64,000 nt of DNA, taken from positions 764 to 64,763 of the forward strand of contig JACPIN010000020.1 of assembly GCA_016188065.1 (NCBI GenBank), read 5' to 3'. Below, piece by piece: positions 1 to 60,021 of the stretch (positions within the stretch are counted from its first letter, which is position 1; the number at the start of each line of letters is the position of its first letter). This stretch comes from Candidatus Woesearchaeota archaeon (GTDB lineage Archaea > Nanobdellota > Nanobdellia > SCGC-AAA011-G17 > ARS1403). A program made the position numbers and the translations under genes. Under the pieces are notes generated by a model. The model ran no database searches. It saw only the letters and a list, made by a program, of their open reading frames with translations, and was not told the origin of the DNA.

Positions 1-1143
1 TTATACGAAGGAAAACCGATAGATGGAATAATGGGGGTTAGCTTCAAAAATAAAGAAGGAAAAGCTATTCACAATCCTCAGAGAGAATTAGAGCCTTTAG
101 ATAATTTTCCAAGAATGCCTTATGAATTAATTCCAGAAGAGAAATTAATAAGAAGCGTTGCTGAGATGGATACTAGAGTTATAGATTATTTTTCAAGCCA
201 AGGCTGCCCTTACAGGTGTGAGTTCTGCGCTGACCCAGATGTTTACAAAAGGAGAACCACCCTACATAGTGCTGAAAGAGTTTTGAATGATATACAATTT
301 TTGGTTAATAAGTATAAAATTAACTGCGTTGTCTGCACAGATACTAATTTTTTCATAAATGAAAGAAGGATTCAAGATATTTGCAGAGGCTTGATTGAAA
401 GAGGGATAAAGATTAAATGGGGCAGCTTGAATATCAGAAGTGACCAGTTCTTGAGGTTAAAAGAAGAGACAGTTGAATTGATGGAAAAAGTTCATTTCTA
501 TAGTTTCTTGAATGGAGCTGAATCAGGTGACCAAGAAATTTTGGACTTGATTAAAAAAGATTCCACTGTTGAAAACACAATCAATATGGCCAAGAGGTGC
601 AAGAAGTACGGGTTCAAGGTTTACTTCTCATTCATTATAGGGATGCCATTAATTCCAAATAATGGAAGGACAAGCAAGGATATTGTAAAGCGAGAGTTTG
701 ATGCCCTTGTAAATATTTTAGATAAAATAATATCCATTGAAAAGGGTCATAGTTTTTACTTGTCTATGTATACTCCTTATCCTGGCTCTCCATTGTATCA
801 GAATGCATTGAAACTTGGATTCAAAGATCCTAAGAGTTTAGAGGAATGGGGGGATTTTACATTCGATAAAATAAATGTTCCTTGGATTCCAAAAGGTTAT
901 ATCCAGAAAGTTGACCAGCTTGAAGAATTATTTCTACCTTTCTTAACTGGGCATATCTATAAGAAATTCAAGAACTATGGAATGCTTGGAAAGATTGCTA
1001 AGCCTGGAGCCCAGTTAATTGGAAAAATTGTAGAATACAGGTGGAAAAATAGAAAATTTGGTTATCCAATTGAATATCACTTGTTAAAAAATGGGAAGAG
1101 ATTGATGAGGGCTTTGTATCCTAGAATCGGTTATAAGGATTAG
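1..1143 (+). CDS. B12-binding (class B) radical SAM protein, 5' partial
   Basis: Reading frame is open to the window start. CPYRCEFC is a CxxxCxxC radical-SAM cluster only ~60 aa into the visible part, so the cobalamin-binding N-domain must lie upstream. Confidence 0.7.
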   Translation, partial: LYEGKPIDGIMGVSFKNKEGKAIHNPQRELEPLDNFPRMPYELIPEEKLIRSVAEMDTRVIDYFSSQGCPYRCEFCADPDVYKRRTTLHSAERVLNDIQFLVNKYKINCVVCTDTNFFINERRIQDICRGLIERGIKIKWGSLNIRSDQFLRLKEETVELMEKVHFYSFLNGAESGDQEILDLIKKDSTVENTINMAKRCKKYGFKVYFSFIIGMPLIPNNGRTSKDIVKREFDALVNILDKIISIEKGHSFYLSMYTPYPGSPLYQNALKLGFKDPKSLEEWGDFTFDKINVPWIPKGYIQKVDQLEELFLPFLTGHIYKKFKNYGMLGKIAKPGAQLIGKIVEYRWKNRKFGYPIEYHLLKNGKRLMRALYPRIGYKD

Positions 1144-1178
1144 ATAAGTTTATAATTATTTTTTTAAATTATTTTTTT

Positions 1179-2195
1179 ATGAAAGTTATCGTTTATGCTG
1201 AAGATCCTAATCTTAACTATCTTAAAGGTCTTAATCTTTTAGATAAAAATAAAAAAATTGAATTAGAATTAATAAATTCTCGGTTATTTTCTTCTATGAT
1301 GTCATTTATCAAGGGAAAAATTTCTATTAAAGAACTAATAAAGATATTTTTTGCACCAATCAGAATCCTGTTTTGCAAAAATATTATTGTCTCTACAGGC
1401 CCATATGGAAAGAAAGTTTATTATTTTTTATTATTGAAATTGCTTGGGAAAAATTTAATTTATTATAACTCTTGGCCTTACTGGAATGATAAGGATAAAT
1501 ACATCAACAATCCCGGACTATTCGGCAGATTTTTCTGGAAAATTTTTTTGAAAGACCTGAAAGTGCCTACAGTAACACATTTTGGAGTTGATGAGGTTAA
1601 AAAACTTGGAGCTAGAGGATACTATAAACCCCAGTGCATTGATCCAGAGATATTTAAAGATAAAAATTACAAAAGGGAGAAAAAAGTGGTTTTGTTTGTA
1701 GGAAGATTGATAGAAGAGAAAGGGATTTTTGGAATACTAGAAGTTGCTTCAAGATTGAAAGAGATTGAATTCTGGTTCGTCGGTGATGGTCCTCTTAAGG
1801 ATAAGATAAAAGGGGAAAATATAAAATACCTAGGAACTAAAACTCGAGAAGAATTAGTTGAGTTGTATAATAAAGCGACAATTTTTGTTCTGAATAGCTA
1901 TTCTGCAACTAATAGCAGATGGGAAGAATGGTTTGGCATTTCATTAGTTGAGGCTATGAGTTGTGGCTTACCAGTTGTATCTACTGATTGCATCGGCCCG
2001 AGAGAAATAATAAAAGAGGGAGTAAATGGATTTTTAATACCACAGAAAGATAATGATTCATTAAGAAATAAGATTGTTGAGCTAATAGAAACCAAAAAAT
2101 TGAGAGAGACATTTAGAAAAAATGGGAAAGAAAGTATAAAAGAATATAACGTAACTAATTTGTCTAAGATATGGTATAACTTGCTTCTGGAATGA
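1179..2195 (+). CDS. GT-B fold glycosyltransferase (GT4-like)
   Basis: C-terminal EAMSCGLPVVSTD plus GxNGFL motif typical of the GT1/GT4 donor-binding domain. Confidence 0.7.
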   Translation: MKVIVYAEDPNLNYLKGLNLLDKNKKIELELINSRLFSSMMSFIKGKISIKELIKIFFAPIRILFCKNIIVSTGPYGKKVYYFLLLKLLGKNLIYYNSWPYWNDKDKYINNPGLFGRFFWKIFLKDLKVPTVTHFGVDEVKKLGARGYYKPQCIDPEIFKDKNYKREKKVVLFVGRLIEEKGIFGILEVASRLKEIEFWFVGDGPLKDKIKGENIKYLGTKTREELVELYNKATIFVLNSYSATNSRWEEWFGISLVEAMSCGLPVVSTDCIGPREIIKEGVNGFLIPQKDNDSLRNKIVELIETKKLRETFRKNGKESIKEYNVTNLSKIWYNLLLE

Positions 2196-2230
2196 TTAAT
2201 TTTAAAAACTTTCATTTTAGCTTTTAAAAC

Positions 2231-4102
2231 ATGGTAGGAATTACTGGATATCTTGGAATCAAAGATAAAACCTTGTTGAATAAAATGATAGATTCCTTGA
2301 GATATACTAACAAAGAATTGTCAGATATTTATGGAAGCAGAGAGATATCCATTTCAAGAGTACATCATGGAATTATTGACTCTGAAAAACAACCTATATT
2401 CAACGAGGATAAATCTATTTTTATTGTGATGGAAGGAGAGGTATTTGATTATGAAAATGAAAAAAATGACCTCATTAAAAAAGGCCATAAGTTTAAGCTA
2501 AAAAATAATAGTGCTGAGTTTTGCTTACATCTCTATGAAGAATATGGTGATGATACCTTCGAAAAATTAAATGGAAGCTTTTTGATTACTCTATACGATT
2601 TAAAAAATAAAGAACTTATCTTTGTTACTGATAAACTTGGCTGGTATCCCTTTTTTTATTACATTAACGATAAGAAATTTATTTTTGGTACACAGATGTC
2701 AAGCATATTGCAAGATGGTGAATTTGAAAGGCATTTAAATATAGATTCAATTCATGAATTTTTCACTTTTCAAAGGGTCTTCGGCGATAACACTTTCTAT
2801 AAGAATATTAAGATTTCCTTGCCAGCTACAATTATGAAGATTAAAAGTTATAAAATAAAAACAAAATGCTATTGGAAGATGGATTTTACCTCAGAAGAAC
2901 ATGATGAAGATTACTGGGCTGATGAGTTAGCAAGTGCCTTAAAAAAGGCTATAAATATTAGATTGAATAAAAGAGACTATAAGTTTGGAATCCTTCTAGG
3001 CGGAGGGCTGGATGCTAGAGCTATACTTGCTGGGGCAGATAAAAATGTTACTTGTTTTACTTATGGCACTTATAAAAATAATGAATTTACTTTTGGGGAT
3101 ATGACTGCAAAAATAAAGAAGTCAAAACATGTTTTCTTTCAAATTGATAAGAATCATTTTGCTAATTTGGCTGATGTTTCTATCCGTATTGGTGATGGCA
3201 TGCATCCTTTTATCCATGCTCCATGGATAGGATATTTTGAGGAGATTAAAAAAGATTGCAATGTGTTACTGCATGGGTTTTCTTTTGACATTCTTTTTAG
3301 GGGATTGTTTGTCCCCATGGAGAGGAGATCATTTTTAGGAAGAAATGTTTCAATCAGAAGTATTGATTACACATGGGCTGAAAATAATTTCCTTGATAAG
3401 CTAATTAAAGAAGCGAATTATGGACTGCAAGGCTTAAATCCAGCTCAACTATTTAAAGATAAAAACAATGTCAATAATAATTTGAAGGAAAACTTTACAA
3501 AAGTCCTGGAATCTAGGGAAAATGGCATTAAAAATTTATATGACAGAGTGGATCATTTCTGGATCGACTCACTTTATAGATATCCTTCATTCTTGAATGT
3601 ATCTTGTATAAGGCCTTTTGTCGATGAGATGCTTGTAACTATAGACCCATTATTACTTGATGTCTATCTTAGAATGCCGCCAGAAGCAAGAATCAATGAC
3701 AGAATTTGGAAAAAAACTCTGATAAAATTAAACAAAGACGTTGGAGAAGTTCCTGATGCTAAAACCGGGTTTTCCCCATTGCTGCCAAAATCACTAGAAC
3801 ATGGAATTGTGCTTTCAAGAAAATTGGCTCACAAAATTATGTATAAGATTTTAAATAAGATTAATCCAAAACAAAGAAAAGAGTCTAACTTTGCCGAGTT
3901 AATAAGATATAATAAAAAATTTAGAGAGAAGATGTACAACATAATCAATGATCCAAAAGCAATTAACCCAAAGATATTTGATGTTGAAAATATTAATAAA
4001 ATGTTTAAGCTGCATATTAATGGAAAAGAGGATCATAATACTGCTTTCTTTATTGCATTACTAACATTCGGGAGATGGCATAAAATTTACGGACCTACTT
4101 GA
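2231..4102 (+). CDS. asparagine synthetase B-like protein lacking the N-terminal Cys nucleophile
   Basis: N-domain aligns with AsnB (MVGITGY vs MCGIAG; HLYEEYGDD; KLGWYPFFYY). PP-loop region is LGGGLDARAI versus SGGLDS. An in-frame stop lies immediately upstream of the Met-Val start. Confidence 0.65.
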   Translation: MVGITGYLGIKDKTLLNKMIDSLRYTNKELSDIYGSREISISRVHHGIIDSEKQPIFNEDKSIFIVMEGEVFDYENEKNDLIKKGHKFKLKNNSAEFCLHLYEEYGDDTFEKLNGSFLITLYDLKNKELIFVTDKLGWYPFFYYINDKKFIFGTQMSSILQDGEFERHLNIDSIHEFFTFQRVFGDNTFYKNIKISLPATIMKIKSYKIKTKCYWKMDFTSEEHDEDYWADELASALKKAINIRLNKRDYKFGILLGGGLDARAILAGADKNVTCFTYGTYKNNEFTFGDMTAKIKKSKHVFFQIDKNHFANLADVSIRIGDGMHPFIHAPWIGYFEEIKKDCNVLLHGFSFDILFRGLFVPMERRSFLGRNVSIRSIDYTWAENNFLDKLIKEANYGLQGLNPAQLFKDKNNVNNNLKENFTKVLESRENGIKNLYDRVDHFWIDSLYRYPSFLNVSCIRPFVDEMLVTIDPLLLDVYLRMPPEARINDRIWKKTLIKLNKDVGEVPDAKTGFSPLLPKSLEHGIVLSRKLAHKIMYKILNKINPKQRKESNFAELIRYNKKFREKMYNIINDPKAINPKIFDVENINKMFKLHINGKEDHNTAFFIALLTFGRWHKIYGPT

Positions 4103-4882
4103 AATAAGGCTTGAACAGAAAACTCCATGGCTTTATACCGGCTTTAACTTCTCTATACATAATTATTGCTGTCAATATAGGCAAAATTGCACCATAGATA
4201 ATCAGGATTATATCCAGTGAGCTGAAGATTGCTGCTATCAAGAAGAGATATCTTGAATTAGCACCTTGTATTACTGTAAAAATTAATCTGAATAAATTTC
4301 TTAAAAATGATTTTTTATATTGTGTATGTTTTTCATTGGGTATTGGAACGGATTTATCTATTGATATGTGCGGTGATTTTCCTTGTGCACATTCTACAAG
4401 TTTAGAAAATATTACCTCATGTTTTAGGTACTGGATTATTCCATTATAGAAACTGAAGAATATAGCAGAGATTCCAAAAATTAAAACCAGTATATCAAAG
4501 TGATTTTGCATTACTCCAATTGTGACTCCGGCAAATACCAGTGGCATAATGATTACTTCTGATAAAGAGTCCAAAAACAAACCATCTAGTGAAGTAGCTT
4601 TTTTATATCTTGCCAATTCTCCATCTACTTGATCAATAACGATCATCAACTCGAATGGGACTATTGCAAGGATTGAAAATAGATAATTATTCATTGCAAA
4701 GAAAAAAGCTACTAATACATTAAAAAATAATAAAGAGAGCGTTACTTGATTGGGGGTTATTTGTGTGTTTATAAGTAATCGCGTTATATATATTGAAGAA
4801 CTTTTCCCCTTAAAGTACCAAAATCGTGCATTTCTGAAGGTTTCTGACAGATCTCTCTTAGCTCTTTTATTGTTGGAGACAT
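4095..4882 (-). CDS. CDP-alcohol phosphatidyltransferase family protein, interrupted by a frameshift near 4803-4810
   Basis: DG-x2-AR-x8-G-x3-D-x3-E motif (DGELARYKKATSLDGLFLDSLSE). The upstream open frame encodes the family-typical ITPNQVTL N-terminus without an ATG. An ATG at 4882 in the adjacent frame (MSPTIKEL...LRGK) joins after a 1-nt shift in a GGGGAAAA run. Confidence 0.6.
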
Positions 4883-4933
4883 GGAATAAACTTAGCCGTT
4901 AGTTATTTAAGATTTGCTAATGAAGAATAAAAG

Positions 4934-5884
4934 ATGGTAGATAGTATTATCTGCAATAGCATAAAAAACCTTGAGTTGAAAGAAGGGAGGGGAACTGCGA
5001 TTGCTCACCATGGCGAGATCCTGCAAGGAATGTTTGAAGACGCAGGAAAATTATTCAGGGGATCAGTTACTTTACCATGCCACATCTTTGGATCACAAGC
5101 TAGTTTTTTCCCTAAAAAAAATTCTTCTAAAATTGTTGTTGATCCTGAATGGAAAATAAAATCTAAAAAAGCTGCGGAATTAACCTTAAAATCTTTGGGT
5201 GTTGAGGACATAGGAGGTAGATTAATGATTAAAAGCAATACCCCTTTGAGACTAGGTCTTGGCTCTTCCACTAGTGATGTAAATGCTTCTATTTTGTCTG
5301 TTGCAAATTCCCTTGGTGTTGTGTTATCTCCTGTTACAATTGCAAGCATCGCTGTCAAGGCTGAAATAGCAACTGATGCTATAATATTCGGTGAGAGAGC
5401 TGTTCTCTTCGGACATAGAGATGGAAAAGTATTTGAAGACCTTGGTGGCAATTTCCCTCCAATGGAGGTTCTTGGCTTTAATTCCGATCCAGATGGAGAA
5501 GGAGTTGACACTTTAGCTTTCCCTCCTGCAGAATATTCCTGGCAGGAAATTGAAATGCTTAGACCTTTGGTAGGTTTGATGAGAAGGGCCATTTATGAAC
5601 AGAACCCTAAGCTTATCGGAAGAGTTTCAATTGCAAGTACAGAGATTAATCAAAGATTTTTGCCTACCAAAAATTTTGATAGTATAAAAAATATTGTTCG
5701 AAAAGTTAATGCTGCCGGCTTGCAAGCCTCGCATAGTGGCATAGTTGTAGGGATTATATTTGATTCTAATGACGTTGATAAAGAGCAAAAAATTCATAGG
5801 AGCCTTTCTTTATTAAAAGACATTGGCTATGATAATGTGTGGAGATTCAGAACAGATAAATTACATCTGGAGGCAGGCTTATGA
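4934..5884 (+). CDS. GHMP-family kinase
   Basis: PLRLGLGSSTSDVNAS matches the GHMP ATP-binding motif PxGSGLGSSAA. The length of 316 aa fits the family. Confidence 0.65.
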   Translation: MVDSIICNSIKNLELKEGRGTAIAHHGEILQGMFEDAGKLFRGSVTLPCHIFGSQASFFPKKNSSKIVVDPEWKIKSKKAAELTLKSLGVEDIGGRLMIKSNTPLRLGLGSSTSDVNASILSVANSLGVVLSPVTIASIAVKAEIATDAIIFGERAVLFGHRDGKVFEDLGGNFPPMEVLGFNSDPDGEGVDTLAFPPAEYSWQEIEMLRPLVGLMRRAIYEQNPKLIGRVSIASTEINQRFLPTKNFDSIKNIVRKVNAAGLQASHSGIVVGIIFDSNDVDKEQKIHRSLSLLKDIGYDNVWRFRTDKLHLEAGL

Positions 5885-6921
5885 AAAACAGATTAGCTTA
5901 CGATAATATTATTGATTTTGTAGAGCTGCCAAAAATAATTAAATTGGATGATAACCTGTATGGCAGTGCCTTCTTCCTGATGAAATTAATGCCTGCGAGG
6001 TTTATATTAGAGAGAGCTGAAAGGGAAGGCATTTTGAAACCTGGATCTTTGGTTGCTGAAACTACATCCGGAACATTCGGCCTGGCTTTAGCTATGCTAT
6101 GTTCTCTAAAAAGTTACAAATTTATTATGGTAACTGATCCTGTTGTCGATGATGCTTTAAAAAGAAGAATCGAAGATTTAGGCGCTGTTGTTGAGATTGT
6201 TCAAAAACCTGCCGATATCGGTGGTTATCAGCGATCCAGGCTTGATAAATTAGTGGAGATTTTAAAAAAAAATTCTGGAAGCTTTTGCCCTAGCCAATAT
6301 GAAAACACAAACAATCCTGCAGGATATTCAAAGTTTGCTGAAATATTAACTGAATCAGTAGGACATATAGATTGTTTAGTCGGCACTGTCGGTTCTGGTG
6401 GATCTGTCTGCGGTACCAGTAAATATTTAAGACAATTGTTCCCAGATCTGCATGTTGTCGGAGTTGATACCTTGGGAAGCGTAATTTTTGGACAACCTGA
6501 TCAGAAAAGATTGTTGCGAGGTCTTGGAAATAGTTTATGGCCTGATAATGTCGATCATACTGTTTTTAATGAGGTTCATTGGGTAAGCGCTGCTGAGGCT
6601 TTCTTGGCTACTAGAATGCTGCATAGAAAACATGCTTTATTTATGGGAGGAACAAGTGGCGCTGCATATATGGTTGCAAAATGGTGGGCAGAAAAAAATC
6701 CTTGTAAAATCGTTGTATGTATCTTTCCAGATGAAGGATATAGGTATCAAGACACAATATACAATGATAGATGGCTTGAAGAAAATAATGTAAAACTTGA
6801 CAAACTTCCTAATAACCCCATTGAAGTAAAAAATCCGATAGATGCGAAAGCTCAATGGTCTTGTATTGGCTGGAATAGAAGAGATTATGAGAATGTCGTT
6901 GGCAAACATAAAGGAACATGA
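5881..6921 (+). CDS. PLP-dependent fold-type II enzyme, cysteine synthase / SbnA-like
   Basis: AETTSGTFGLALAMLCSLKSYKFIMVTDP and GTVGSGGSVCGT glycine-rich PLP-phosphate loop. Its ATGA start overlaps the upstream kinase stop. Confidence 0.65.
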   Translation: MKNRLAYDNIIDFVELPKIIKLDDNLYGSAFFLMKLMPARFILERAEREGILKPGSLVAETTSGTFGLALAMLCSLKSYKFIMVTDPVVDDALKRRIEDLGAVVEIVQKPADIGGYQRSRLDKLVEILKKNSGSFCPSQYENTNNPAGYSKFAEILTESVGHIDCLVGTVGSGGSVCGTSKYLRQLFPDLHVVGVDTLGSVIFGQPDQKRLLRGLGNSLWPDNVDHTVFNEVHWVSAAEAFLATRMLHRKHALFMGGTSGAAYMVAKWWAEKNPCKIVVCIFPDEGYRYQDTIYNDRWLEENNVKLDKLPNNPIEVKNPIDAKAQWSCIGWNRRDYENVVGKHKGT

Positions 6922-8120
6922 AACCCTATTTTGTTTTTATTGAAAGCAACACTTCTGGAACTGGAAGAATATTCGCTCAAGCTGCTAAAGATAAAGGATT
7001 CAATCCAGTGTTGTTAGCTGGAGACATTTCTAGGTACCATTATGCTAAAGAAGATAACTTAGAGTTTATAAAGGTCAATACTCAAAATGAAACAGATTTA
7101 CTCAACACTTGTAAGAAATTAAAAAATGTTGCAGGTGTTCTTTCCAGCTCAGAATACTTTATTGAAATGGCGGCGATTATTTCTAAAAAATTAAATTTGC
7201 CTGGGGTTAATCCTGATGCAATTAAAAATTGCAGGGACAAAAGCCTTCAGAGAATTATTTTACAAGAAAATAATATCGGAATCCCAAAATTTTATGTCTG
7301 TGAATCTGAAAAAGAATCTGCCGCTGCAAGTAAAAGCATTGGGTACCCTGTTATTGTAAAACCAGTTATGGGTACTGGAAGCGTCGGAGTCAAACTCTGC
7401 ATAAATATTAATGAGGTAGCAGAACATACTAAGCATCTCCTTAAGCAAAAAACAAATGAAAGAGGAATGCCTGTACCACAAAAAGTTCTTGTCGAGGAAT
7501 TTTTAGACGGTGAGGAATACTCTGTTGAAACTTTTGGAGGAAAAATTATCGGGATTACTAAAAAATATGTTGGATCTTTGCCGAACTTTGTTGAGATAGG
7601 CCATGATTTTCCTGCAGATATAGATAGAGATAAAACAAAAAAAATCAATAAAACTACATTGGATGCCCTGGATGCTGTTGGGCTTGACTGTGGACCTGGA
7701 CACGTCGAAGTAAAGTTCGTTTTTGGCGAAGCAAAAATTGTTGAGATCAATCCTAGACTTGCAGGAGGGTTTATCCCTAAACTTGTTGACTATGCTTTTG
7801 GTGTAAACTTAATTAATGAAACGATTAAACTTACCTCTGGAGAAAGAGTAAATTTGGAATCTACAAGAAAGGATTATTCGTCAATCAGATTCATACTCTC
7901 TCCACGCAAGGGCTTATTCTCTAAAGTTGAAGGCTTAGATAACCTTAAAAACAAAAACATAGTTGAGACTTGTATATATAAGAATGAAGGCAATGAAATT
8001 TCAGTCAATGGTGACTTTAGGGATAGGATTGGGCATATAATCTCTTATTCAAAAAATAAGTCAGAGACCATTAGTGCAGCAAATTCTGCTATTAAAAATT
8101 TGAGGGTTATTGTAAAATGA
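6918..8120 (+). CDS. ATP-grasp domain ligase
   Basis: YPVIVKPVMGTGSVGV, EEFLDGEEYSVE and GPGHVEVKF...EINPRLAGG are ATP-grasp motifs. Confidence 0.7.
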   Translation: MKPYFVFIESNTSGTGRIFAQAAKDKGFNPVLLAGDISRYHYAKEDNLEFIKVNTQNETDLLNTCKKLKNVAGVLSSSEYFIEMAAIISKKLNLPGVNPDAIKNCRDKSLQRIILQENNIGIPKFYVCESEKESAAASKSIGYPVIVKPVMGTGSVGVKLCININEVAEHTKHLLKQKTNERGMPVPQKVLVEEFLDGEEYSVETFGGKIIGITKKYVGSLPNFVEIGHDFPADIDRDKTKKINKTTLDALDAVGLDCGPGHVEVKFVFGEAKIVEINPRLAGGFIPKLVDYAFGVNLINETIKLTSGERVNLESTRKDYSSIRFILSPRKGLFSKVEGLDNLKNKNIVETCIYKNEGNEISVNGDFRDRIGHIISYSKNKSETISAANSAIKNLRVIVK

Positions 8121-9568
8121 AAGACACAGGAAGAATTACGAAAGGATTAGATCCAAAGATTGTGGGGATATTATATGGAGATAATCTTGATGAGTTAATT
8201 GATGGTGAAATGGTGTATTCCACTCAAGTTGATAGGGCTCATTTAGTTATGCTAACTAAGGAAAAAATAGTGGATAAAAACAAAGTGAAATTGCTGCTAA
8301 ATGAAATAAATAATCTAAGAGAAAATGAATTTGGACCATTAAGAGGCAAGACTCCACATAGGGGAATATACCTTCTCTATGAAGATTATTTAATCGAGAA
8401 GCTTGGCGAGGATATAGGGGGGGTATTGCAAACCGCAAGGTCAAGAAATGATCTTAATGCAACGATATTGAAATTAAGGCTGAGAGGACATTATAATTCT
8501 ATCATGATGAATTTATTAGAATTACAAAAAATTTTGATTGAAAAATCAAACCAGTTTAAAGATGTAATCATGCCGGCATATACTCACTTTCAGGCAGCAG
8601 TTCCAATAACTTATGGACATTACCTTGCTGGAATCGCTAGTGCAATAGACCGAGATATAGAGAACATAATAGCCAGTAGCAAGGGATTGCAATATTGCCC
8701 CCTCGGAGCTGGCGCGGTTGGCGGGACTTCTTTTCCTATAGACTCTAAATTAACTGCAAAATTGCTTGGCTTCTTTTATGAAGTGGAAAATTCTGTGGAT
8801 GCTGTGGCTTCCAGGGATCTTGTATTGAGATTACTATCAGCGACGTCAATTGCAGGAATCACGATAAGCAGATTAGCAACAGATTATTTACTATGGACCA
8901 CTTCAGAGTTTAATTTTCTATCATTTCCAGATAAACTTGTTGGGTCTAGTTCTATGATGCCTAACAAAAGGAATATCTTTATCCTTGAAAACATCCAAGG
9001 TAAATCCGGTTTTGCTTTGGGACAGTTCATCTCTTCTTCAAATGCAATGCAATGCAAGCCTTACACTAACTCCATTTCTGTTGGTACTGAGGGCGTTAAA
9101 AGTATCTGGAAACCTTTAGAAGAAAGTATTGCAGCAATAATCTTGATGACAAATATGGTAGAGAATGCAACTCCTAATAAAGAAAATATGTTAAGAAAAT
9201 CACTTGATGGGTATACTTTTGCAACTGAAACTGCTAATGAGCTTGTAAGGCAACATGGAATGTCATTCAGATCTGCCCATTATCTTGTTGGAAAAATTGT
9301 TAAAGAATCAATTGAAAACAAAGAACCCTTTAAAGATGCTGCTAAAAGAATATTAAATGAATCAAACAAAAACCTTTCATTTGATAATTTTGAAATGGAA
9401 AGGATTGTAATGAATTCTAGGTTTGGTGGAGGTCCCGGTAGATCTTCATTAAAAATTCTTAATAAAAAACTAATAAGATATAAAAGACATTTTGAAAAAG
9501 ATTTAAAATATTGGGCTAAGTCTGATAAGGTCTTAGAGAGAGAAATAAAAAAAATCTGTGGGTCTTGA
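8117..9568 (+). CDS. fumarate-lyase superfamily enzyme, argininosuccinate/adenylosuccinate lyase-like
   Basis: Superfamily signature GSSSMMPNKRN (GSxxMxxKxN). ARSRNDLNAT resembles the ArgH GRSRNDQ motif. Confidence 0.7.
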   Translation: MKDTGRITKGLDPKIVGILYGDNLDELIDGEMVYSTQVDRAHLVMLTKEKIVDKNKVKLLLNEINNLRENEFGPLRGKTPHRGIYLLYEDYLIEKLGEDIGGVLQTARSRNDLNATILKLRLRGHYNSIMMNLLELQKILIEKSNQFKDVIMPAYTHFQAAVPITYGHYLAGIASAIDRDIENIIASSKGLQYCPLGAGAVGGTSFPIDSKLTAKLLGFFYEVENSVDAVASRDLVLRLLSATSIAGITISRLATDYLLWTTSEFNFLSFPDKLVGSSSMMPNKRNIFILENIQGKSGFALGQFISSSNAMQCKPYTNSISVGTEGVKSIWKPLEESIAAIILMTNMVENATPNKENMLRKSLDGYTFATETANELVRQHGMSFRSAHYLVGKIVKESIENKEPFKDAAKRILNESNKNLSFDNFEMERIVMNSRFGGGPGRSSLKILNKKLIRYKRHFEKDLKYWAKSDKVLEREIKKICGS

Positions 9569-11125
9569 TTATAGTTTTTTTAGAATACGATTCATCTTCG
9601 TAAAATTTATCCCCGACTTTTCTTGTATAAGTTTAATAACCATAATGTCCTCTCGTTCAAATGCCTTTGTTATTATAAGTAATAAGATGTAGATAGTTAC
9701 CAATGCCAAAAAACCAAATGGTGCGGCAATAATATTTGGAAGCAATAACAGATACTTTCTAAGATAATACACTGATACGGTTGCAATAACTATTGAAGAA
9801 AAAACCTTTATATACTTTGCATTGAAAGGGGTTATACCTAGATAATATTTAACCTCTATCATCAACAAAATAGAGCGGGTTATAAAAGCAGTGGCTGTAG
9901 CAAGTGCTGCACCATTTATTCCATATATTGGAATCAAATAGATATTTAATATTAGATTGATAATCATCATGATCATTGAATTCAGAAATATGGTCTTAGT
10001 CTTCTTGTGGATCATAAGGATATCTTGAGTACTGCTCATGGCATATCCTACAAAATAACCGAGCGATAAAATTATTAATGAAGCCGACGCTTCGACATAT
10101 GCCCTGCCAAACAATATTGAGAGCACTTGGCTAGAAAATAGACAGAAAAAACTCAATAAGATGATGTTTATAGAGAAGATCCATTTAGTTATTATGATAT
10201 AGATGGATTTAAAAACTTCATTTTTAGATTGAGAATATATCTCTGTTAATACTGGAATAAATAAAGTGAGCATTATCAGGGGAACCATAAACATAAGCCC
10301 CGAGGTTGGTAAAGCAGCATTGTATAATCCTGTTTCTTGTGGAGATGTAAAATAACCTAACATTAGTGTATCTGTCCATAGGATCACTGAAAATATCAAT
10401 GTGCTGAAAAGCAACGGCAGGGAGTAAACCAGCAGTTCTTTATTGAGGGATAATGAAACTATCTCTTCGTCCTTTTGTTTTAATACCTTTGAATTTAAGA
10501 AATAAAAAGCAGCTATAAAACTTAGAAAAATTGAAATTATATAAGCGACTGTTAATCCAAATAACCTATAACCTAAAAAGGTAAAGATAAACGAGAGACT
10601 AACTTTTGTTACATTTTCTATTATATGTTTGGAATAGACTTCATATTCAACTTTTTGAAGTGCCCTGACTATTTTAAAAAATATTTCCCTTAGTGAATTA
10701 AATGGAATTATCACAGCAAATAATTTTATAATTATATTTAATTCTTGATCGTGAAAAAGATTTATTGCTAGCCACTTTGAAAAAATAAATACTATTATTG
10801 AAAGGAAAATACTTATTATGGAAACTATCTTCACTGAAAATCCTAGCATACTTTTTATTCTTGCATAATCTTCTTTTCCCTTGTAAAAAGAGACGTACCT
10901 CAACAATCCATCTCCTAAACCTATTAATGAAACAGAGGTTAGTAGACCCAATATTGCTATTCCAATGGATAACAAACCATATTCATAGATTCCTGCTCTT
11001 GCAGCGATTATCCTATAGATATAACCAAATATTTTCGAGAAGATTATTCCAAATGCTATTATTTTTGTCCCTTTTAGGATAGTTTTAAGAGGATTGTTTA
11101 TCTCTGATTCTGACATTAGTTTCAA
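9569..11125 (-). CDS. Wzx-type oligosaccharide flippase (MOP superfamily polysaccharide biosynthesis protein)
   Basis: 518 aa with about 14 predicted TM helices and a hydrophobic composition typical of PST/Wzx proteins. Confidence 0.65.
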   Translation of the reverse strand: MKLMSESEINNPLKTILKGTKIIAFGIIFSKIFGYIYRIIAARAGIYEYGLLSIGIAILGLLTSVSLIGLGDGLLRYVSFYKGKEDYARIKSMLGFSVKIVSIISIFLSIIVFIFSKWLAINLFHDQELNIIIKLFAVIIPFNSLREIFFKIVRALQKVEYEVYSKHIIENVTKVSLSFIFTFLGYRLFGLTVAYIISIFLSFIAAFYFLNSKVLKQKDEEIVSLSLNKELLVYSLPLLFSTLIFSVILWTDTLMLGYFTSPQETGLYNAALPTSGLMFMVPLIMLTLFIPVLTEIYSQSKNEVFKSIYIIITKWIFSINIILLSFFCLFSSQVLSILFGRAYVEASASLIILSLGYFVGYAMSSTQDILMIHKKTKTIFLNSMIMMIINLILNIYLIPIYGINGAALATATAFITRSILLMIEVKYYLGITPFNAKYIKVFSSIVIATVSVYYLRKYLLLLPNIIAAPFGFLALVTIYILLLIITKAFEREDIMVIKLIQEKSGINFTKMNRILKKL

Positions 11126-11196: not shown

Positions 11197-12498
11197 ATGA
11201 AAAAAGTGTTTGTTGGGATGAGCGGAGATGTATTTCATCATGGACATATCAATATTATAGAAACTGCTAGAAAGCTAGGAGATGTTACTGTAGGATTAAT
11301 GACCGATGAGGGAATTGTTAGCTATAAACGTCCTCCATTATTAAATTATGATCAGAGAAAAAAAATTATTGAGAACATTAAAGGTGTTAGTAAAGTTATT
11401 CCGCAAGACGGCCTTAATGATTATATTAGAATTATACGACAGCTGAAACCAGATTACGTTGTTCATGGAACTGACTGGAGAGAAGGCATTCAGAAGAGTA
11501 CAAGAGAAAAAGTAATTGAAGTCTTGAAGGAGGTTGGTGGAGAATTAATTGAGCCAGAATATACAAAGGATATCTCTTCTACAGCATTAGTAAATGAATT
11601 GCTTGAGCTTGGAACAACCCCAGATGTTCGATTAAAAAAATTGAGAAGATTAATCAAGTTGAAACCTATTGTCAGACTCCTTGAAGTCCATAATGGATTA
11701 ACCGGAAGAATTGTTGAAAAAACTAGAGTGGATTTAGATGGAGAGATTCGGGAATTCGACGGTATGTGGATAAGCAGCTTGACCGACTCCATTTCTAAAG
11801 GCAAGCCAGACATAGAATACGTTGATTTTACTTCAAGAAACCAGACAATTGACCAGATATGTGATGTTACAACCAAACCTATAATCGTCGATGGAGACAC
11901 TGGAGGAATGGCTGAGCATTTTTCCTATGCTGTTAAAACACTTGAAAGACTCGGTGTATCTGCAGTTATTATCGAGGACAAAATAGGCCTAAAAAGAAAT
12001 TCATTATTTGGAGCGGATGCTAACCAAACACAGGATAGTATAGAAAATTTTTCTAATAAAATCTCTGCAGGAAAAAGATCCCAAGTTACAGAAGAATTTA
12101 TGATCATTGCAAGAATTGAAAGTCTTATTTTAAGAAAGGGAATTGATAATGCATTGGAAAGAGCTTATGCTTATATTCAGGCTGGTGCTGATGGAATTAT
12201 GATACATAGCAAGGAGAAAAGCCCTGATGAAATTGTAACTTTTTGCAAGGCTTACCGACATTTTGATAAAAAAGTTCCTTTAATTGTCGTGCCTACAACC
12301 TACAATCAGATTACAGAGCAAGAATTAATAGACATTGGTGTTAATATTGTAATTTATGCAAATCACTTATTGAGAAGTGCATATCCCCCTATGCTAAAAA
12401 CTGCTGAAACAATTTTAAAAAATGGAAGATCTTTTGAAGCTGAAAAATTATGTTTACCTATAAATGAAATATTAACACTAATACCCGGAGGAAAATAA
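11197..12498 (+). CDS. pepM: bifunctional cytidylyltransferase / phosphoenolpyruvate phosphomutase (Fom1-like CyTase-PepM fusion)
   Basis: N-terminal HxGH nucleotidyltransferase (VFHHGHINIIETARKLGD, TagD/CCT-like). C-terminal PEP-mutase fold with the PepM-diagnostic EDKIGLKRNS (EDK-x5-NS), and LLEVHNGLTGRIVEK. Confidence 0.85.
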   Translation: MKKVFVGMSGDVFHHGHINIIETARKLGDVTVGLMTDEGIVSYKRPPLLNYDQRKKIIENIKGVSKVIPQDGLNDYIRIIRQLKPDYVVHGTDWREGIQKSTREKVIEVLKEVGGELIEPEYTKDISSTALVNELLELGTTPDVRLKKLRRLIKLKPIVRLLEVHNGLTGRIVEKTRVDLDGEIREFDGMWISSLTDSISKGKPDIEYVDFTSRNQTIDQICDVTTKPIIVDGDTGGMAEHFSYAVKTLERLGVSAVIIEDKIGLKRNSLFGADANQTQDSIENFSNKISAGKRSQVTEEFMIIARIESLILRKGIDNALERAYAYIQAGADGIMIHSKEKSPDEIVTFCKAYRHFDKKVPLIVVPTTYNQITEQELIDIGVNIVIYANHLLRSAYPPMLKTAETILKNGRSFEAEKLCLPINEILTLIPGGK

Positions 12499-12499
12499 C

Positions 12500-13372
12500 G
12501 TGGCTAGATTTTTGAATGAAATAGTTGATGATGAAAAATTAGCTTGGACAAGAGAAACATTTTCTTTAAACTCTGATGGAATCTATAATTTATTTAAACC
12601 TGGAATTTCTGGGTTACCTGAAAATGTTAAAAAATTCCGTGAAAACGTCTTAGAAAATGGATATGGCTTTGGGATTATTAAAGGGATGAGTCATTTTAAC
12701 AGAGAGATACAGAGAGAGATATACCTCTCTACTGCTAGACTTTTAGGGAACCCCATTGTGCAGAATATTTCTGGAGAGACGGTGGTTGATGTATTTGATA
12801 AAGGCAAAACTATGGAGACTGGTGGGAGGTATCATGAAACTAGACAAGGTGGAGCATTGCATACAGATAGCCCGCAATATAAAGATATTCCAGATTATTT
12901 AGGATTGTTATGTTTGCATCCTGCAAAAGCAGGGGGGGAGAGCAAATTTATCAGCGCGTATAGTTTACATAATCGGCTTTTGAAGGAAAACTCTGAACTT
13001 CTTAAGAGGTTATATCAGCCATTTCATTTCGATAAAAGAGGACATGAAAAACTTGGAGAAAGCCCGACAACATTTGAGCCAGTATTTAGATATGATAGTA
13101 AGGGATTACATTTTAGATATCTAGGAAATTACATCCGATCAGGACATGAAAGAATTTCAGTTCCCCTTTCTGATATTGAAAGAAAGGCACTTGAAGCTGT
13201 TGATAGGTTATTAGAGGATGAAAACCTTATTGTTACTGCAGAGATGGGATCTGGAGATATGCAGTTTTTGAATAACCATCGAGTTGTCCATGGAAGAACC
13301 GACTTTGTAGATTATGAAGATCTTGATAAGAAAAGATTGATGCTAAGAACTTGGTTACGAAAATATGTCTAA
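12500..13372 (+). CDS. TauD/TfdA-family Fe(II)/2-oxoglutarate dioxygenase (paralog 1)
   Basis: HTDSP (HxD) plus distal NHRVVHGRT (second His and Arg). Paralogous to 14537..15544. GTG start per ORF track. Confidence 0.65.
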   Translation: MARFLNEIVDDEKLAWTRETFSLNSDGIYNLFKPGISGLPENVKKFRENVLENGYGFGIIKGMSHFNREIQREIYLSTARLLGNPIVQNISGETVVDVFDKGKTMETGGRYHETRQGGALHTDSPQYKDIPDYLGLLCLHPAKAGGESKFISAYSLHNRLLKENSELLKRLYQPFHFDKRGHEKLGESPTTFEPVFRYDSKGLHFRYLGNYIRSGHERISVPLSDIERKALEAVDRLLEDENLIVTAEMGSGDMQFLNNHRVVHGRTDFVDYEDLDKKRLMLRTWLRKYV

Positions 13373-14120
13373 AGAAATTGTTGGTTTTATTCTCGCAGCA
13401 GGATGCAGCAAAAGGCTTAAAGAATTAACAATAGATAAGCCAAAATCTTTTTTAGAGATCAATAAAAAAAGACTTATTGATTATCATTTGGATTATTTAG
13501 CTGAATTCGGGATTAAAGAAGCGTGCCTAGTAGTTGGCTTCTTAAAAGATTTATTTAAAGAGAATATAGGCCATGATCATAAAGGCGTTAAAATTAATTA
13601 CATTGAAAATGATTTGTACGAGACAACCGGACATAGTTATAGCGTCCTCTTAGGAAAAGAATTATTTCTAGAGAAAGACATCCTACTTATTCATGCAGAT
13701 GTCTTCTATGACCGTTCAATTCTTGAAATGTTGATTAAAGAAAGTTTGGATAATGTAGTGCTTGTTGACGATCATTATAAAGTTCTAACTGGAGATGAAT
13801 TTGTTGTTACTGGAATGGATAATCTTGTTTCTGGAATAGGTCCTAATAAAACAGCGAATATTCAAGGAGAGTTTCTTGGATTGAGCAAACTGAGCTCTAA
13901 TTTTATGACTGAATTTTGCGATTATATGGAAGGCTTTTTTAGTGTTAGAGGAAATAAATTCAATTATGAAATAGTGATGGATGAATTCTTAGGAACAAGT
14001 TCTTCTCCACTTTATTATAAAAAAATTGGCAGAAGCAGATGGATTAATCTTAATTACAAAGAGGATTATGAGGAAGCCAAAAGAATTGCTGTAGAAAATT
14101 ATTCTTTTTTTAAAAAATAA
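13365..14120 (+). CDS. LicC/GlmU-like nucleotidyltransferase (sugar- or alcohol-phosphate cytidylyltransferase family)
   Basis: N-terminal GFILAAGCSKRL (GxGxR loop) and Rossmann-like NTP-transferase layout. 251 aa. Confidence 0.7.
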   Translation: MSKEIVGFILAAGCSKRLKELTIDKPKSFLEINKKRLIDYHLDYLAEFGIKEACLVVGFLKDLFKENIGHDHKGVKINYIENDLYETTGHSYSVLLGKELFLEKDILLIHADVFYDRSILEMLIKESLDNVVLVDDHYKVLTGDEFVVTGMDNLVSGIGPNKTANIQGEFLGLSKLSSNFMTEFCDYMEGFFSVRGNKFNYEIVMDEFLGTSSSPLYYKKIGRSRWINLNYKEDYEEAKRIAVENYSFFKK

Positions 14121-14536: not shown

Positions 14537-15544
14537 ATGCAAAATATCCCTCAAAGTTTTCCAACTGAAAAAGTTGAGAATAAACGATCCTGGAATAGAA
14601 ATAGTGACTTCAGTCATATAGTGCATGTTTTTTCAAAAGAAACTCAAGATGAAATAAGAGACTATTTAGATATGAGCGTTACAAAAAAAGTTTTAGGCAG
14701 AGAAGAGATTGAATCTGTTGACTATAACCCTAATGAATTATCTAATCTTGTTTCGGAAATAGAATCTGTAAGACCCCAAGTAGATACTGGAACGGGATTC
14801 GTTGTTTTCCCAGATTGGGAAGGCTTGACAATTCATCAAAGCCGAGTTGCATCTTGGTTAGTGGATAACACCTTTGGTAAATGTAAAGAGCAGGATGATA
14901 GGGGGAGTCGTTTGATAGAGATATATAATCAATCAGATACTCTAAGTATGAAAACTGGTGCTAGATACCATGTAACTAGAGAAGGAAATTCTCCACATAC
15001 AGATGGTCCACAGATCATTGATGACCCGGATTATTTGTGTCTACGCTGTGTTAATGATGCTTGGGTAGGCGGAGAAAATATTTTGGTAACCGGAGAATCT
15101 ATATATAATAATCTTCTTGAAAACGCTTCCGATTTAATTGGAGTATTATCTGATAATTTTTACTTCCATTGTAGGGGTGTTAAAAATGCTGAAGGAAGAG
15201 AATATTTTCAAGCACCCATCTTGTCTATGGATAAAGAAGGAATAAGATTACGTTTTTTAGATCATTACATTAGAGAAGGGCATAAATTTGCTAGAACGCC
15301 TTTGACGTATAAACAGGAAAAGGCTATACAGTATATAAATAGTTTATTTGAACAGTCTGATTTACAATTTAGAGCCAGATTAGAGCCTGGACAACAAGTA
15401 GTATTTGCAAATAAAAGGATGTTGCATGCAAGAACGGAATTTGTGGACTTAAACCCTGCAAATGAACACTATGATCCTAGTCAACTAGACAACATAAAAA
15501 CTGCAAATAGATTGATGGATAGAACCTGGACCTATAAAAGATGA
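14537..15544 (+). CDS. TauD/TfdA-family Fe(II)/2-oxoglutarate dioxygenase (paralog 2)
   Basis: ARYHVTREGNSPHTDGPQIIDDPDYLCL aligns with GRYHETRQGGALHTDSPQYKDIPDYLGL of paralog 1. Distal HART motif. A GGAGG ribosome-binding site lies 7 nt upstream. Confidence 0.65.
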   Translation: MQNIPQSFPTEKVENKRSWNRNSDFSHIVHVFSKETQDEIRDYLDMSVTKKVLGREEIESVDYNPNELSNLVSEIESVRPQVDTGTGFVVFPDWEGLTIHQSRVASWLVDNTFGKCKEQDDRGSRLIEIYNQSDTLSMKTGARYHVTREGNSPHTDGPQIIDDPDYLCLRCVNDAWVGGENILVTGESIYNNLLENASDLIGVLSDNFYFHCRGVKNAEGREYFQAPILSMDKEGIRLRFLDHYIREGHKFARTPLTYKQEKAIQYINSLFEQSDLQFRARLEPGQQVVFANKRMLHARTEFVDLNPANEHYDPSQLDNIKTANRLMDRTWTYKR

Positions 15545-26594: not shown

Positions 26595-27503
26595 TTAAAT
26601 TCTAACCCTTAATGCTAAAAATGTAAAAAAAACTATAAGGTTTACTACAATAGTTCCTAAGATATACGCGCTTGCTGTTATTACTGGGTCTAACCCAATA
26701 AATGTATAAAATAATGCTGCAGAAGATTCTTTTATTCCGAGCCCATTTGGTGTTATCGGTATGAATGTCAAAATTGTTATCATTGAATCAATCACGAGTA
26801 TATGAAGAAAATTAACTTGCTGCCCGAAAGATAAAAATAAAAATGAGACTGCCACTGATGAGATCATTGCTTTCAATATTGTTATAGTAAGATTAAATAG
26901 GATCGCTGATTTTTTGTGCTTGATAAGTTTCAAAAGGTTTGATGAAAATCCGCTGAACATTGTTGAATATTTTCTTAAAATATATTTTTTTATTATCGCT
27001 TTCACTTTTTCACTGATCATTGCAACTATAAATATAAATAGAAGAAAAGAGAGGACCATTAGCGGGAGAGTTAAATAATCTGTGTCAAACAAGAATATTG
27101 CTCCAATTGTTGAAGCTACTATAAGAAAGATCAAAGTGATTGCTTTATCAATAAGGTAGAGAACAGAGCTCAGTCCATATTCAACATTGTCTTTTTTAAG
27201 AAATTTTATCAAAATGAATTCTCCAATTTTTCCCGGTAAAATTAATCCTGATGCCCAACTCATCAAGTTGTACCTAAATAATTTGAGCAGTGGCATTTTT
27301 ACGCCCAGTGCATTTAATAATATCTTCAAGTTATACGCTCCTAATAGAAATAGTAAAATCCACAACAAAATCGTAGGGACTACCCATAACAGATTTGCGG
27401 ATAATAAGGTTTCAAACAGTTTCCTTATACCTAAAGTGTATGTTAGTATTGTTAATATCGCTGCTGCCAAAATAATTCTTTGAATAAAATTTTTAGAGAT
27501 CAT
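26595..27503 (-). CDS. polytopic membrane protein, flippase-like (lysyl-PG synthase TM-region / UPF0104-like)
   Basis: 302 aa with about 8 TM helices. Directly coupled to a downstream membrane-anchored GT2, a common archaeal pairing. Confidence 0.45.
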   Translation of the reverse strand: MISKNFIQRIILAAAILTILTYTLGIRKLFETLLSANLLWVVPTILLWILLFLLGAYNLKILLNALGVKMPLLKLFRYNLMSWASGLILPGKIGEFILIKFLKKDNVEYGLSSVLYLIDKAITLIFLIVASTIGAIFLFDTDYLTLPLMVLSFLLFIFIVAMISEKVKAIIKKYILRKYSTMFSGFSSNLLKLIKHKKSAILFNLTITILKAMISSVAVSFLFLSFGQQVNFLHILVIDSMITILTFIPITPNGLGIKESSAALFYTFIGLDPVITASAYILGTIVVNLIVFFTFLALRVRI

Positions 27504-49978: not shown

Positions 49979-50031
49979 CTATAAATAATAAAATCAAGAA
50001 ATCAATTTTTTAAACATATCTAAAATCTAAT

Positions 50032-50117: not shown

Positions 50118-50151
50118 TTTGAGAAGATTTAGAAAAAGTTTATTTATTAAA

Positions 50152-60002: not shown

Positions 60003-60021
60003 TTTTTTATTCCTCAGTATA

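Follow-up and report, generated by a model that had tools for sequence, protein, structure and literature searches.

The gene at 4095-4882 on the minus strand of a 64-kb window of Woesearchaeota DNA (the whole stretch analysed here, from contig JACPIN010000020.1; coordinates given without a locus are positions in this window) belongs to the cytidine diphosphate (CDP)-alcohol phosphotransferase family and lies in a surface-glycan/phosphonate cluster. It probably specifies a stand-alone enzyme with six transmembrane helices that would transfer a phosphonate when intact, and the copy carried by this DPANN archaeon is most likely a recent loss-of-function allele. The attachment of phosphonates to lipids or glycans after their activation with cytidine monophosphate (CMP) is still called enigmatic (PMC6697681), and phosphonate clusters that contain a CDP-alcohol phosphotransferase (CDP-OH) gene are abundant and without a characterised product (PMC8942020). 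While the presence of CDP-OH transferases in phosphonate clusters was already known, the subfamily described here is distinct, uncharacterised and widespread, and it is repeatedly linked in operons to genes for phosphonates of the hydroxyethylphosphonate (HEP) type. Intact members that can serve as candidates for assays are P0002, the intact orthologue protein of close relatives, and the proteins of L060 and L066 (L0xx denotes comparison loci). As a single locus, the window gene is of modest interest and, for its own genome, cautionary, in that the transfer step of the pathway may be non-functional in the organism. The association at the level of the subfamily and an unusual substitution of the catalytic base, the fourth signature aspartate (D4), are the parts worth following.

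An earlier analysis of this DNA, made without database searches (hereafter the sequence-only reading), had recognized at 4095-4882 a CDP-alcohol transferase family gene that is split across two frames and starts at the ATG at 4882, and both the family and the start agree with our results. This ATG opens an open reading frame (ORF) of 32 codons (4784-4882, minus strand) that ends at an in-frame TAA at 4784-4786; its translation, MSPTIKELREICQKPSEMHDFGTLRGKVLQYI*, includes the N-terminal motif of the subfamily, PTIKELREICQ. The body of the gene (4095-4801, minus strand; ..SSSIYITRLLINTQITPNQVTL...KPYFK) is encoded in the -1 frame, which is already open upstream of the ATG and reads ..KGKSSSIYITRLLINTQITPNQVTL.. 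down to the TAG at 4095-4097, and carries the cytosine-binding motif PNQVT as well as the signature DQVDGELARYKKATSLDGLFLDSLSE. When P0002 was aligned to the window with tblastn, residues 1-28 matched 4882-4799 in one frame (86% identity) and residues 33-266 matched 4796-4098 in the other frame (79% identity), with residues 29-32 left unmatched. Joining the two frames yields a protein of 262 amino acids (aa) that scores 35.7 bits with PF01066 (CDP-OH_P_transf), above the gathering score of 22. In the window gene, no continuous frame runs from the JM1 helix to the sixth transmembrane helix (TM6), and the first ATG, GTG or TTG of the body frame, at 4694, is located downstream of the first transmembrane helix. 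The protein annotated on this contig by NCBI (P0001, 251 aa), which begins at a CTG in the body frame, is a by-product of calling the gene across its broken frame.

The sequence-only reading had proposed that a correction of 1 nucleotide (nt) in a homopolymer would repair the gene. One added nucleotide does restore the frame; the true lesion, however, is a net deficit of 10 nt at ~4795-4801 relative to the intact orthologues (77-88% DNA identity). Such intact, single-frame orthologues were found, with conserved synteny, in four assemblies, i.e., L001 and L002, which are identical and encode P0002 (266 aa, 79% amino-acid identity), L003 (87% identity) and L008, a metagenome-assembled genome (MAG) from Woesearchaeota whose protein is intact through the lesion region. 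In the common gene order, a GHMP-kinase-like gene is divergent from the CDP-alcohol phosphotransferase gene, which converges on genes for an asparagine-synthase-like protein, a GT1 glycosyltransferase and a B12-radical SAM enzyme. At the site of the lesion, the DNA alignment shows GGAAA(A/G)ATTCATAGGTT(C/T)TTTTCAATATATA in the relatives and, in the window, GGAAAAGTTC followed by ten gap positions and TTCAATATATA; the intact version of the site, as in an allele without the deletion, is ..ATTCATAGGTTCTT.. The junction (4795-4801, minus strand) joins GTTC to TTC where the orthologues have ..A TTC ATA GGT TCT TTT CAA.., which encodes IHRFF. The exact breakpoint is ambiguous within TTC repeats, and the lesion could be a single 10-nt deletion between these repeats, accompanied by an A>G substitution, or two deletions, of 8 nt and 2 nt. 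Its net effect is a loss of 10 nt and a shift to the -1 frame after codon 27. The GGGGAAAA run occupies 4802-4809, just upstream of the junction, and the change in length does not fall within this run; an error of 1 nt in the homopolymer was ruled out by the DNA alignments with L001, L002 and L003 and by the L008 protein. The product obtained by the 1-nt repair reads GK-SS-SIYITR, compared to GK-IHRFF-SIYITR in all relatives.

The five residues removed by the deletion include arginine R30, which, together with S33, T37, D87, D90, G91, E92, A94 and R95, is invariant across an alignment of 36 sequences and which aligns with the arginine of the R-K-x-S motif of AF2299 and of the DIPP synthase. 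In an AlphaFold model of P0002 (pLDDT 84.4, pTM 0.81), residues 24-41 form a single helix, JM1, which carries the deleted segment. In solved CDP-alcohol phosphotransferases, JM1 and TM2 build the pocket for the substituent of the CDP-donor (Clarke et al. 2015, PMC4634129). Because IHRFF is lost from JM1, a frame-restored product would still lack the invariant arginine and its JM1 would be shorter by almost one turn. Given the frame shift, the loss of this arginine and the absence of a start codon in the body frame before the first transmembrane helix, the gene is inactive as assembled.

The remainder of the gene shows little decay. The only other insertion or deletion relative to L001 is an in-frame gap of 3 nt in a variable loop, the ratio of non-synonymous to synonymous substitution rates (dN/dS) is 0.16 versus L003 and 0.08 versus L001, the changes on the window branch comprise 12 synonymous and 6 conservative non-synonymous substitutions, and the 27 codons that precede the break remain conserved in the frame of the ATG. 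The low dN/dS, the lack of a second lesion and the conserved upstream codons indicate purifying selection until very recently, and the break therefore either arose by mutation a short time ago, is compensated in some way, or is an artefact of consensus or assembly. An artefact, or a minority strain variant that entered the consensus of the MAG, would mean that the organism has an intact and functional 266-aa enzyme. We regard this as unlikely, though with a real chance of being correct, as the purifying selection elsewhere in the gene, the missing second lesion and the conserved N-terminal codons are all in line with it. Moreover, the contigs of L002, L003 and L008, which were assembled independently from close relatives, stop within the gene or next to it, which suggests either strain-level heterogeneity or low coverage at this locus; heterogeneity among strains would fit a variant consensus. 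A second disrupted gene in the window could likewise reflect an imperfect consensus. This gene, which encodes a B12-binding radical SAM protein (34983-36455, plus strand, 490 codons), carries an in-frame TAA at 35781-35783 (..FKDIIHRII*EKIDIKFGLLG..), and its homologues (e.g., L039 7635-9056) align straight through the stop; together with the phosphotransferase lesion, at least two genes of the glycan cluster are thus disrupted in this assembly. However, the rest of the window is densely and cleanly coding, with 57 long ORFs and no further broken gene seen, deletions of 10 nt are rarely made by short-read assemblers, and long-read errors, mostly of 1-2 nt and at homopolymers, would be expected in many genes. 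No compensating paralogue was found in the window. A search of JGI metagenome contigs for the deleted allele, with the exact junction and a degenerate upstream pattern, returned no match and is uninformative.

Compensation could, in principle, also come from translation. Directly upstream of the deletion, the slippery heptamer G_GGA_AAA (4802-4808, minus strand) is a perfect X_XXY_YYZ site in the frame of the ATG and ends 1 nt before the junction, and slippage by -1 at this site would fuse the two frames into a 262-aa product with SS in place of IHRFF. The first G of the heptamer stems from a synonymous AGA>AGG change that is specific to the window, the stop of the 0 frame follows six codons after the heptamer, and the body frame offers no ATG, GTG or TTG before 4694. 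Partial rescue of a real deletion by ribosomal frameshifting is nevertheless highly improbable. In this AT-rich window (GC content 33.6%), X_XXY_YYZ sites occur at 235 of 19,380 in-frame codons (1.2%), and at this density a heptamer near the lesion is unsurprising (roughly 10-30% by chance). The 113 nt downstream fold no better than shuffled sequences (z = -1.03), so that no stimulatory structure is seen, the orthologues are read in a single frame, so that the site is not a conserved programmed one, and the product would still have a JM1 helix shorter by three residues and no invariant arginine. A programmed frameshift was rejected on these grounds, i.e., an arrangement that is not conserved, no structure and a plausible origin by chance. 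Phase variation, which the sequence-only reading had offered as an option, is not supported either, since the tract is merely G4A4, too short for this purpose, and the lesion is a non-reversible loss of 10 nt that lies beside the tract.

The assignment to the CDP-alcohol phosphotransferases, made from the sequence alone, was confirmed by the PF01066 score. The sequence-only reading had named clustering with the core-lipid synthases as an outcome that would speak against its proposal, and no such clustering was found. The archaetidylinositol-phosphate synthase model NF040950 gave 49.6 bits versus a cut-off of 180, and no equivalog model reached its cut-off. When a profile of the subfamily was compared to the PDB, AF2299 of Archaeoglobus fulgidus (4O6M) ranked first (E 1.4e-24, 90.6 bits), followed by IPCT-DIPPS (4MND; E 2.3e-10), and then phosphatidylinositol-phosphate synthase (E 0.0007) and phosphatidylserine synthase (E 0.0045). 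Foldseek searches with the P0002 model also placed the AF2299 chains on top, with DIPPS and phosphatidylinositol-phosphate synthase among the top matches. An archaetidylinositol-phosphate or archaetidylserine synthase of core-lipid metabolism is ruled out by the NF040950 score and this PDB ranking. AF2299 and DIPPS are the two structurally known members of the family that use soluble CDP-alcohols and are not lipid-processing (PMC4634129).

Most hallmarks of the family are present in the window protein. It carries the signature D1xxD2G1xxAR...G2xxxD3 as DQVDGELARYKKATSLDGLFLD, the P(D/N)xx(T/S) motif of TM1 as PNQVT, and the fold with six transmembrane helices. In place of the fourth signature aspartate, the window protein and its orthologues have Glu (..DSLSE; Glu112 in P0002), 43 of 78 relatives have His, and several others, including members linked to phosphoenolpyruvate (PEP) mutase, have Ser or Gly. 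D4 is the proposed catalytic base, and its substitution in MtPIPS (D93N) abolishes activity (PMC4634129). Ser or Gly at D4 was observed in L030, L055, L058, L044, L046, L047, L054 and L067, many of them PEP-mutase-linked, where no acid/base side chain is present at this position. The N-terminal IKELREICQ is conserved in the subfamily and absent from AF2299. Judged by its motifs, the subfamily is distinct and stand-alone, defined by this N-terminus, a JM1 helix with R..SIYIT, and His or Glu at D4.

Comparison to AF2299, the best match in both sequence and fold (Foldseek probability 1.0, 24% identity), indicates which features are shared with a structurally known enzyme. Both proteins have R-x-x-S in JM1, P-N-Q-x-T in TM1, DxxDGExAR and G...D3, and structures of AF2299 (4O6M, 4O6N, 4Q7C) show a soluble donor, CDP-glycerol, in the bound state (PMC4634129). 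AF2299 differs in its fused N-terminal cytidylyltransferase-like domain and its canonical Asp at D4, whereas the window protein is a stand-alone enzyme with Glu at this position and with the additional IKELREICQ at its N-terminus. IPCT-DIPPS, the second-best match in sequence and fold, combines a cytidylyltransferase with a CDP-inositol:inositol-phosphate transferase, so that a small alcohol phosphate is activated by cytidylyl transfer and then transferred, a logic like the one proposed here. This enzyme, however, unites the two activities in a single polypeptide, acts on two soluble inositol derivatives and retains the canonical Asp at D4.

The case for a phosphonate substrate begins with the window itself. 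A CMP-phosphonate pathway near the gene, with a fusion enzyme ~6 kb away, had been noted in the sequence-only reading and is upheld. The fusion of a cytidylyltransferase (PF01467) and PEP mutase (11197-12498, plus strand) starts 6.3 kb from the phosphotransferase gene on the opposite strand, contains EDKIGLKRNS, scores 403.8 bits with TIGR02320 (cut-off 319.6) and has the architecture of Fom1. It is followed by a TauD-family Fe/2-oxoglutarate oxygenase (12500-13372, plus strand), a stand-alone NTP_transferase with a LicC/PntC-like fold (13365-14120, plus strand), a second TauD-family oxygenase (14537-15544), a phosphonopyruvate decarboxylase (15588-16715, plus strand; TIGR03297, 496.6 bits versus a cut-off of 312.5) and an Fe-dependent alcohol dehydrogenase (16712-17809, plus strand) that overlaps the end of the decarboxylase gene. 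The two oxygenases are candidate hydroxylases of the phosphonate or of its CMP conjugate, and the NTP_transferase, whose homologues immediately precede the CDP-alcohol phosphotransferase in L044, L067 and L017, is a candidate second nucleotidyltransferase for phosphonate activation. From its position in the operon, the alcohol dehydrogenase is probably the phosphonoacetaldehyde reductase that makes HEP (with Phn_Fe-ADH it scores 159 bits, below the equivalog cut-off of 424). With PEP mutase and decarboxylase above their equivalog cut-offs, two cytidylyltransferases and no homologue of the aminoethylphosphonate (AEP) transaminase in the 64-kb window at E < 1e-10, a CMP-activated pathway of the HEP type is plausible, with HEP as the putative product and CMP-HEP as its putative activated form.

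A scan of species-representative genomes extended this association well beyond the window. Among 80 loci, 11 from Actinomycetota that encode fusion proteins with canonical D4 were set aside, and the remaining 69 stand-alone loci have hosts that include Woesearchaeota, Nanoarchaeota, Asgard archaea, ANME-1, Kaiserbacteria, Saccharibacteria, Chloroflexota and Verrucomicrobiota. A PEP mutase homologue was located within 10 kb in 14 of the 69, in bacteria as well as archaea, and in 10 of the 34 loci that have at least 8 kb on both sides. By comparison, PEP mutase is found anywhere in the genome in just 1.6-4.2% of genomes (PMC8942020). The 14 linked loci mostly have EDKxxxxxNS (13/14), encode the PEP mutase on the same strand as the transferase (13/14) and include an Fe-alcohol dehydrogenase (11/14), and their PEP mutase usually shares an operon with the decarboxylase, the Fe-alcohol dehydrogenase and a cytidylyltransferase or CMP kinase; L012 and L016 are further loci that are cut by contig ends beside decarboxylase and Fe-alcohol dehydrogenase genes. 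The order cytidylyltransferase-PEP mutase, decarboxylase, Fe-alcohol dehydrogenase and CDP-alcohol phosphotransferase is found in L060, L066 and L055, and the same type of order recurs with an NTP_transferase gene (L044 and L067) or a cytidylate kinase gene (L063 and L084) directly upstream of the transferase gene. The presence of soluble cytidylyltransferases and of a dedicated CMP kinase is consistent with the consumption of a CMP-activated small molecule and the release of CMP. PEP-mutase-linked members fall into ~9 separate clades of a neighbour-joining tree, which is crude and has long branches. The link to phosphonate genes thus recurs across phyla and is stronger than the sequence-only reading, confined to one stretch of DNA, could know. 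In L004, which carries an orthologue with 48% identity, the gene adjoins genes for Wzx, a cytidylyltransferase and, two genes away, the cytidylyltransferase-PEP mutase fusion, and the module that intervenes in the window is absent. L004 also encodes a homologue of the AEP transaminase (3-869, minus strand), truncated at the contig end, and the phosphonate head group may thus vary among close relatives, with AEP in L004 and HEP in the window.

In the reaction that we propose for the intact enzyme, a phosphonate (HEP or a hydroxylated or methylated derivative) would be made by PEP mutase, phosphonopyruvate decarboxylase and the Fe-alcohol dehydrogenase and would receive its CMP from either the cytidylyltransferase domain of the fusion or the stand-alone NTP transferase. 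The phosphotransferase would then, on the cytoplasmic side of the membrane, transfer the phosphonyl group to a hydroxyl of a membrane-associated acceptor with release of CMP. This acceptor would most likely be a lipid-linked glycan intermediate that is subsequently flipped by Wzx, while a glycerolipid or a soluble alcohol may also serve. For archaeol, the acceptor suggested by the sequence-only reading, no support was found, and the genomic context is a glycan cluster. The same reading had named CMP-HEP as the donor; a CMP-phosphonate is supported by the phosphonate linkage, and CMP-HEP in particular is a candidate.

The surroundings of the gene agree with a glycan acceptor. They represent a glycan cluster of ~35 kb with GT1, GT2 and GT-C glycosyltransferases, Wzx, sugar dehydratases/epimerases, an LPG-synthase-like flippase protein and UbiA, and an S-layer-like protein is encoded further along. 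The flippase of the Wzx/MurJ type (9569-11125, minus strand) is located between the phosphotransferase region and the phosphonate genes.

The same components could be read in the opposite sense, with the enzyme acting as a lipid head-group synthase, much as phosphatidylglycerophosphate and phosphatidylinositol-phosphate synthases do. The donor would then be a CDP-lipid (CDP-archaeol or CDP-diacylglycerol), and HEP or a hydroxylated phosphonate would be the alcohol that accepts the transferred group. Such a reaction would suit the predominant linkage to the branch of phosphonate synthesis that forms an alcohol (the Fe-alcohol dehydrogenase of most PEP-mutase-linked loci and the TauD hydroxylases of the window), the similarity of HEP to glycerol phosphate when regarded as an alcohol, and the presence in the cluster of a gene for an LPG-synthase-like membrane protein. 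To our knowledge, however, DPANN and candidate phyla radiation (CPR) hosts generally lack CDP-lipid synthesis, and the clusters encode soluble cytidylyltransferases and sometimes a CMP kinase, which this reaction would not need. Furthermore, the closest relatives of the subfamily are the two non-lipid CDP-alcohol phosphotransferases, which have a small hydrophilic donor pocket (PMC4634129), and we consider the reverse reaction very unlikely.

Several observations weigh against a phosphonate-transferring enzyme that has been lost in this organism. The window gene itself is 6.3 kb away from PEP mutase, on the opposite strand and separated from it by an inserted four-gene module (4934-9568), and most loci of the subfamily have no PEP mutase. 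Some loci contain genes of the CDP-glycerol/CDP-ribitol type instead, and donor specificity is therefore not fixed across the subfamily. As D4 is replaced, even intact members may use a different chemistry. Our literature searches yielded no biochemically characterised prokaryotic CMP-phosphonate transferase of the CDP-alcohol phosphotransferase family. With regard to the lesion, the deletion may have originated as a consensus or assembly error, and purifying selection without a second lesion is just as expected if the gene is intact in the actual organism.

The first of these observations could also mean that the enzyme serves a non-phosphonate branch of the glycan, transferring glycerol-, ribitol- or another alcohol-phosphate from a CDP-alcohol, and that its proximity to phosphonate genes is incidental. 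Many members without PEP mutase adjoin genes for TagF-like glycerophosphotransferases, NTP transferases and sugar-phosphate or polyol metabolism, such as RpiB/Rpe or Fe-ADH_2 (L005, L007 and the Streptomyces plasmid locus L088), and AF2299 binds CDP-glycerol (PMC4634129). Such an incidental proximity is quite unlikely, though, since L004, which lacks the intervening module, retains the linkage, since the linkage recurs in separate clades of the subfamily, and since no dedicated CDP-glycerol or CDP-ribitol pathway was seen beside the window gene. Rather, the TagF and polyol contexts make the subfamily look like transferases of small CDP-alcohols for surface polymers that include members specialised for phosphonates. 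In PEP-mutase-linked as well as PEP-mutase-free loci, a protein of ~630-660 aa with a C-terminal TagF-like Glyphos_transf domain is encoded immediately downstream of the transferase gene (L060 10804-12693, L066 5241-7124, L067 10829-12805, L005 7883-9784 and L006 4216-6117); the pair may represent the primer and the polymerase for a teichoic-acid-like polymer, possibly poly-HEP.

A broader interpretation, which we put forward tentatively and as a possibility rather than as our expectation, is that the subfamily represents the long-missing class of enzymes that put HEP-type phosphonates on cell-surface molecules. Its gene would be the last member of a portable cassette, after genes for the cytidylyltransferase-PEP mutase fusion, the phosphonopyruvate decarboxylase, the Fe-alcohol dehydrogenase and either an NTP transferase or a CMP kinase, and would have spread with this cassette among bacteria (CPR, Chloroflexota and Verrucomicrobiota) and archaea (DPANN, Asgard and ANME-1). 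In certain lineages, the enzyme may cooperate with the TagF-like partner to make phosphonate polymers of the teichoic-acid type, and the window copy would be freshly inactivated.

Phosphonate clusters with CDP-OH genes in bacteria offer the closest parallel in gene content. The Burkholderiales_CDP-OH group accounts for 36% of the PEP-mutase neighbourhoods examined by Li & Horsman (2022, PMC8942020), mainly in complete bacterial genomes from RefSeq, and its predicted phosphonolipids are uncharacterised (PMC8942020); a CDP-OH gene in a phosphonate cluster has also been reported in Nostoc (PMC5987646). In Mycetohabitans rhizoxinica (L090, WP_041754879), the core consists, in this order, of a CDP-OH transferase, a 2-oxoglutarate-dependent oxygenase, an LPG-synthase-domain protein, a PntC-like cytidylyltransferase, a fused PEP mutase, a decarboxylase and an AEP transaminase. 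All of these components except the transaminase have a counterpart at 9.5-27.5 kb of the window, including an LPG_synthase_TM/flippase-like membrane protein (26595-27503, minus strand) that corresponds to the HpnL-like gene of the Burkholderiales and Nostoc phosphonate cores (PMC5987646), and in both systems the transferase is predicted to act on a phosphonate head group. Where the Burkholderiales core has the AEP transaminase, the window has the Fe-alcohol dehydrogenase, and the transferases themselves are distant (27% identity over 112 columns, hhalign probability 98.6%), with the Burkholderiales protein keeping Asp at D4 and lacking both IKELREICQ and R..SIYIT. The PEP mutase locus on a plasmid of B. 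stagnalis is a different locus and has no CDP-OH gene.

The window also resembles the Fom1/FomC/Fom3 steps of fosfomycin synthesis in its PF01467-PEP mutase fusion, phosphonopyruvate decarboxylase, Fe-alcohol dehydrogenase and B12-radical SAM enzymes. According to work cited in PMC6697681, CMP-HEP, an intermediate on the way to fosfomycin, is the product of the cytidylyltransferase domain of the Fom1 type. In that pathway, the CMP is transient and is hydrolysed off, no membrane transferase takes part, and the product is a free antibiotic and not a surface decoration.

A precedent for a CMP-phosphonate donor in this superfamily is provided by the eukaryotic choline/ethanolamine phosphotransferases, which accept CMP-aminoethylphosphonate and thereby form phosphonolipids. 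These enzymes (structures 8ERO and 8GYW) are very distant from the subfamily (E 0.002-0.009), have additional transmembrane helices and use diacylglycerol as acceptor.

Among the neighbours of the phosphotransferase gene, the convergent block at 31-4102 (plus strand), which encodes a B12-radical SAM protein cut by the window start, a GT1 glycosyltransferase and an asparagine-synthase-like amidotransferase, is conserved and syntenic in L001, L004 and L008. On the other side, the divergent intergenic region between the phosphotransferase and GHMP-kinase-like genes (4883-4933, 51 nt) is strongly conserved across the orthologous loci; Rfam and tRNA scans gave no match in or near the phosphotransferase gene. 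The module at 4934-9568 (plus strand) encodes a GHMP-kinase-like protein, an SbnA-like pyridoxal phosphate enzyme (234 bits, below the equivalog cut-off), an ATP-grasp protein like L-amino-acid ligases and an argininosuccinate-lyase-like protein. It is present in the clade of the window (L002 and L003) and absent from L004, and it may be the source of an amino-acid-derived substituent.

Cupin-containing proteins of 452-460 aa are encoded in two DPANN/archaeal loci (L013 5565-6923 and L016 632-2014) between the cytidylyltransferase-PEP mutase fusion and the Fe-alcohol dehydrogenase, and they resemble HEP dioxygenase or methylphosphonate synthase in size and position. Genes for B12-binding radical SAM proteins recur near subfamily genes even where PEP mutase is absent (L039, L029, L047, L054, L020, L041, L048, L011 and L007), and in the window they are found near the subfamily gene at 31-1143 and 24232-25653. 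Finally, two tRNA genes at 50031-50118 and 60021-60112 (minus strand), 88-92 nt in length, probably contain introns, which together with the NCBI annotation points to a DPANN archaeon, and the assignment of the former as tRNA-Phe(aaa) by ARAGORN is probably an error caused by its intron.

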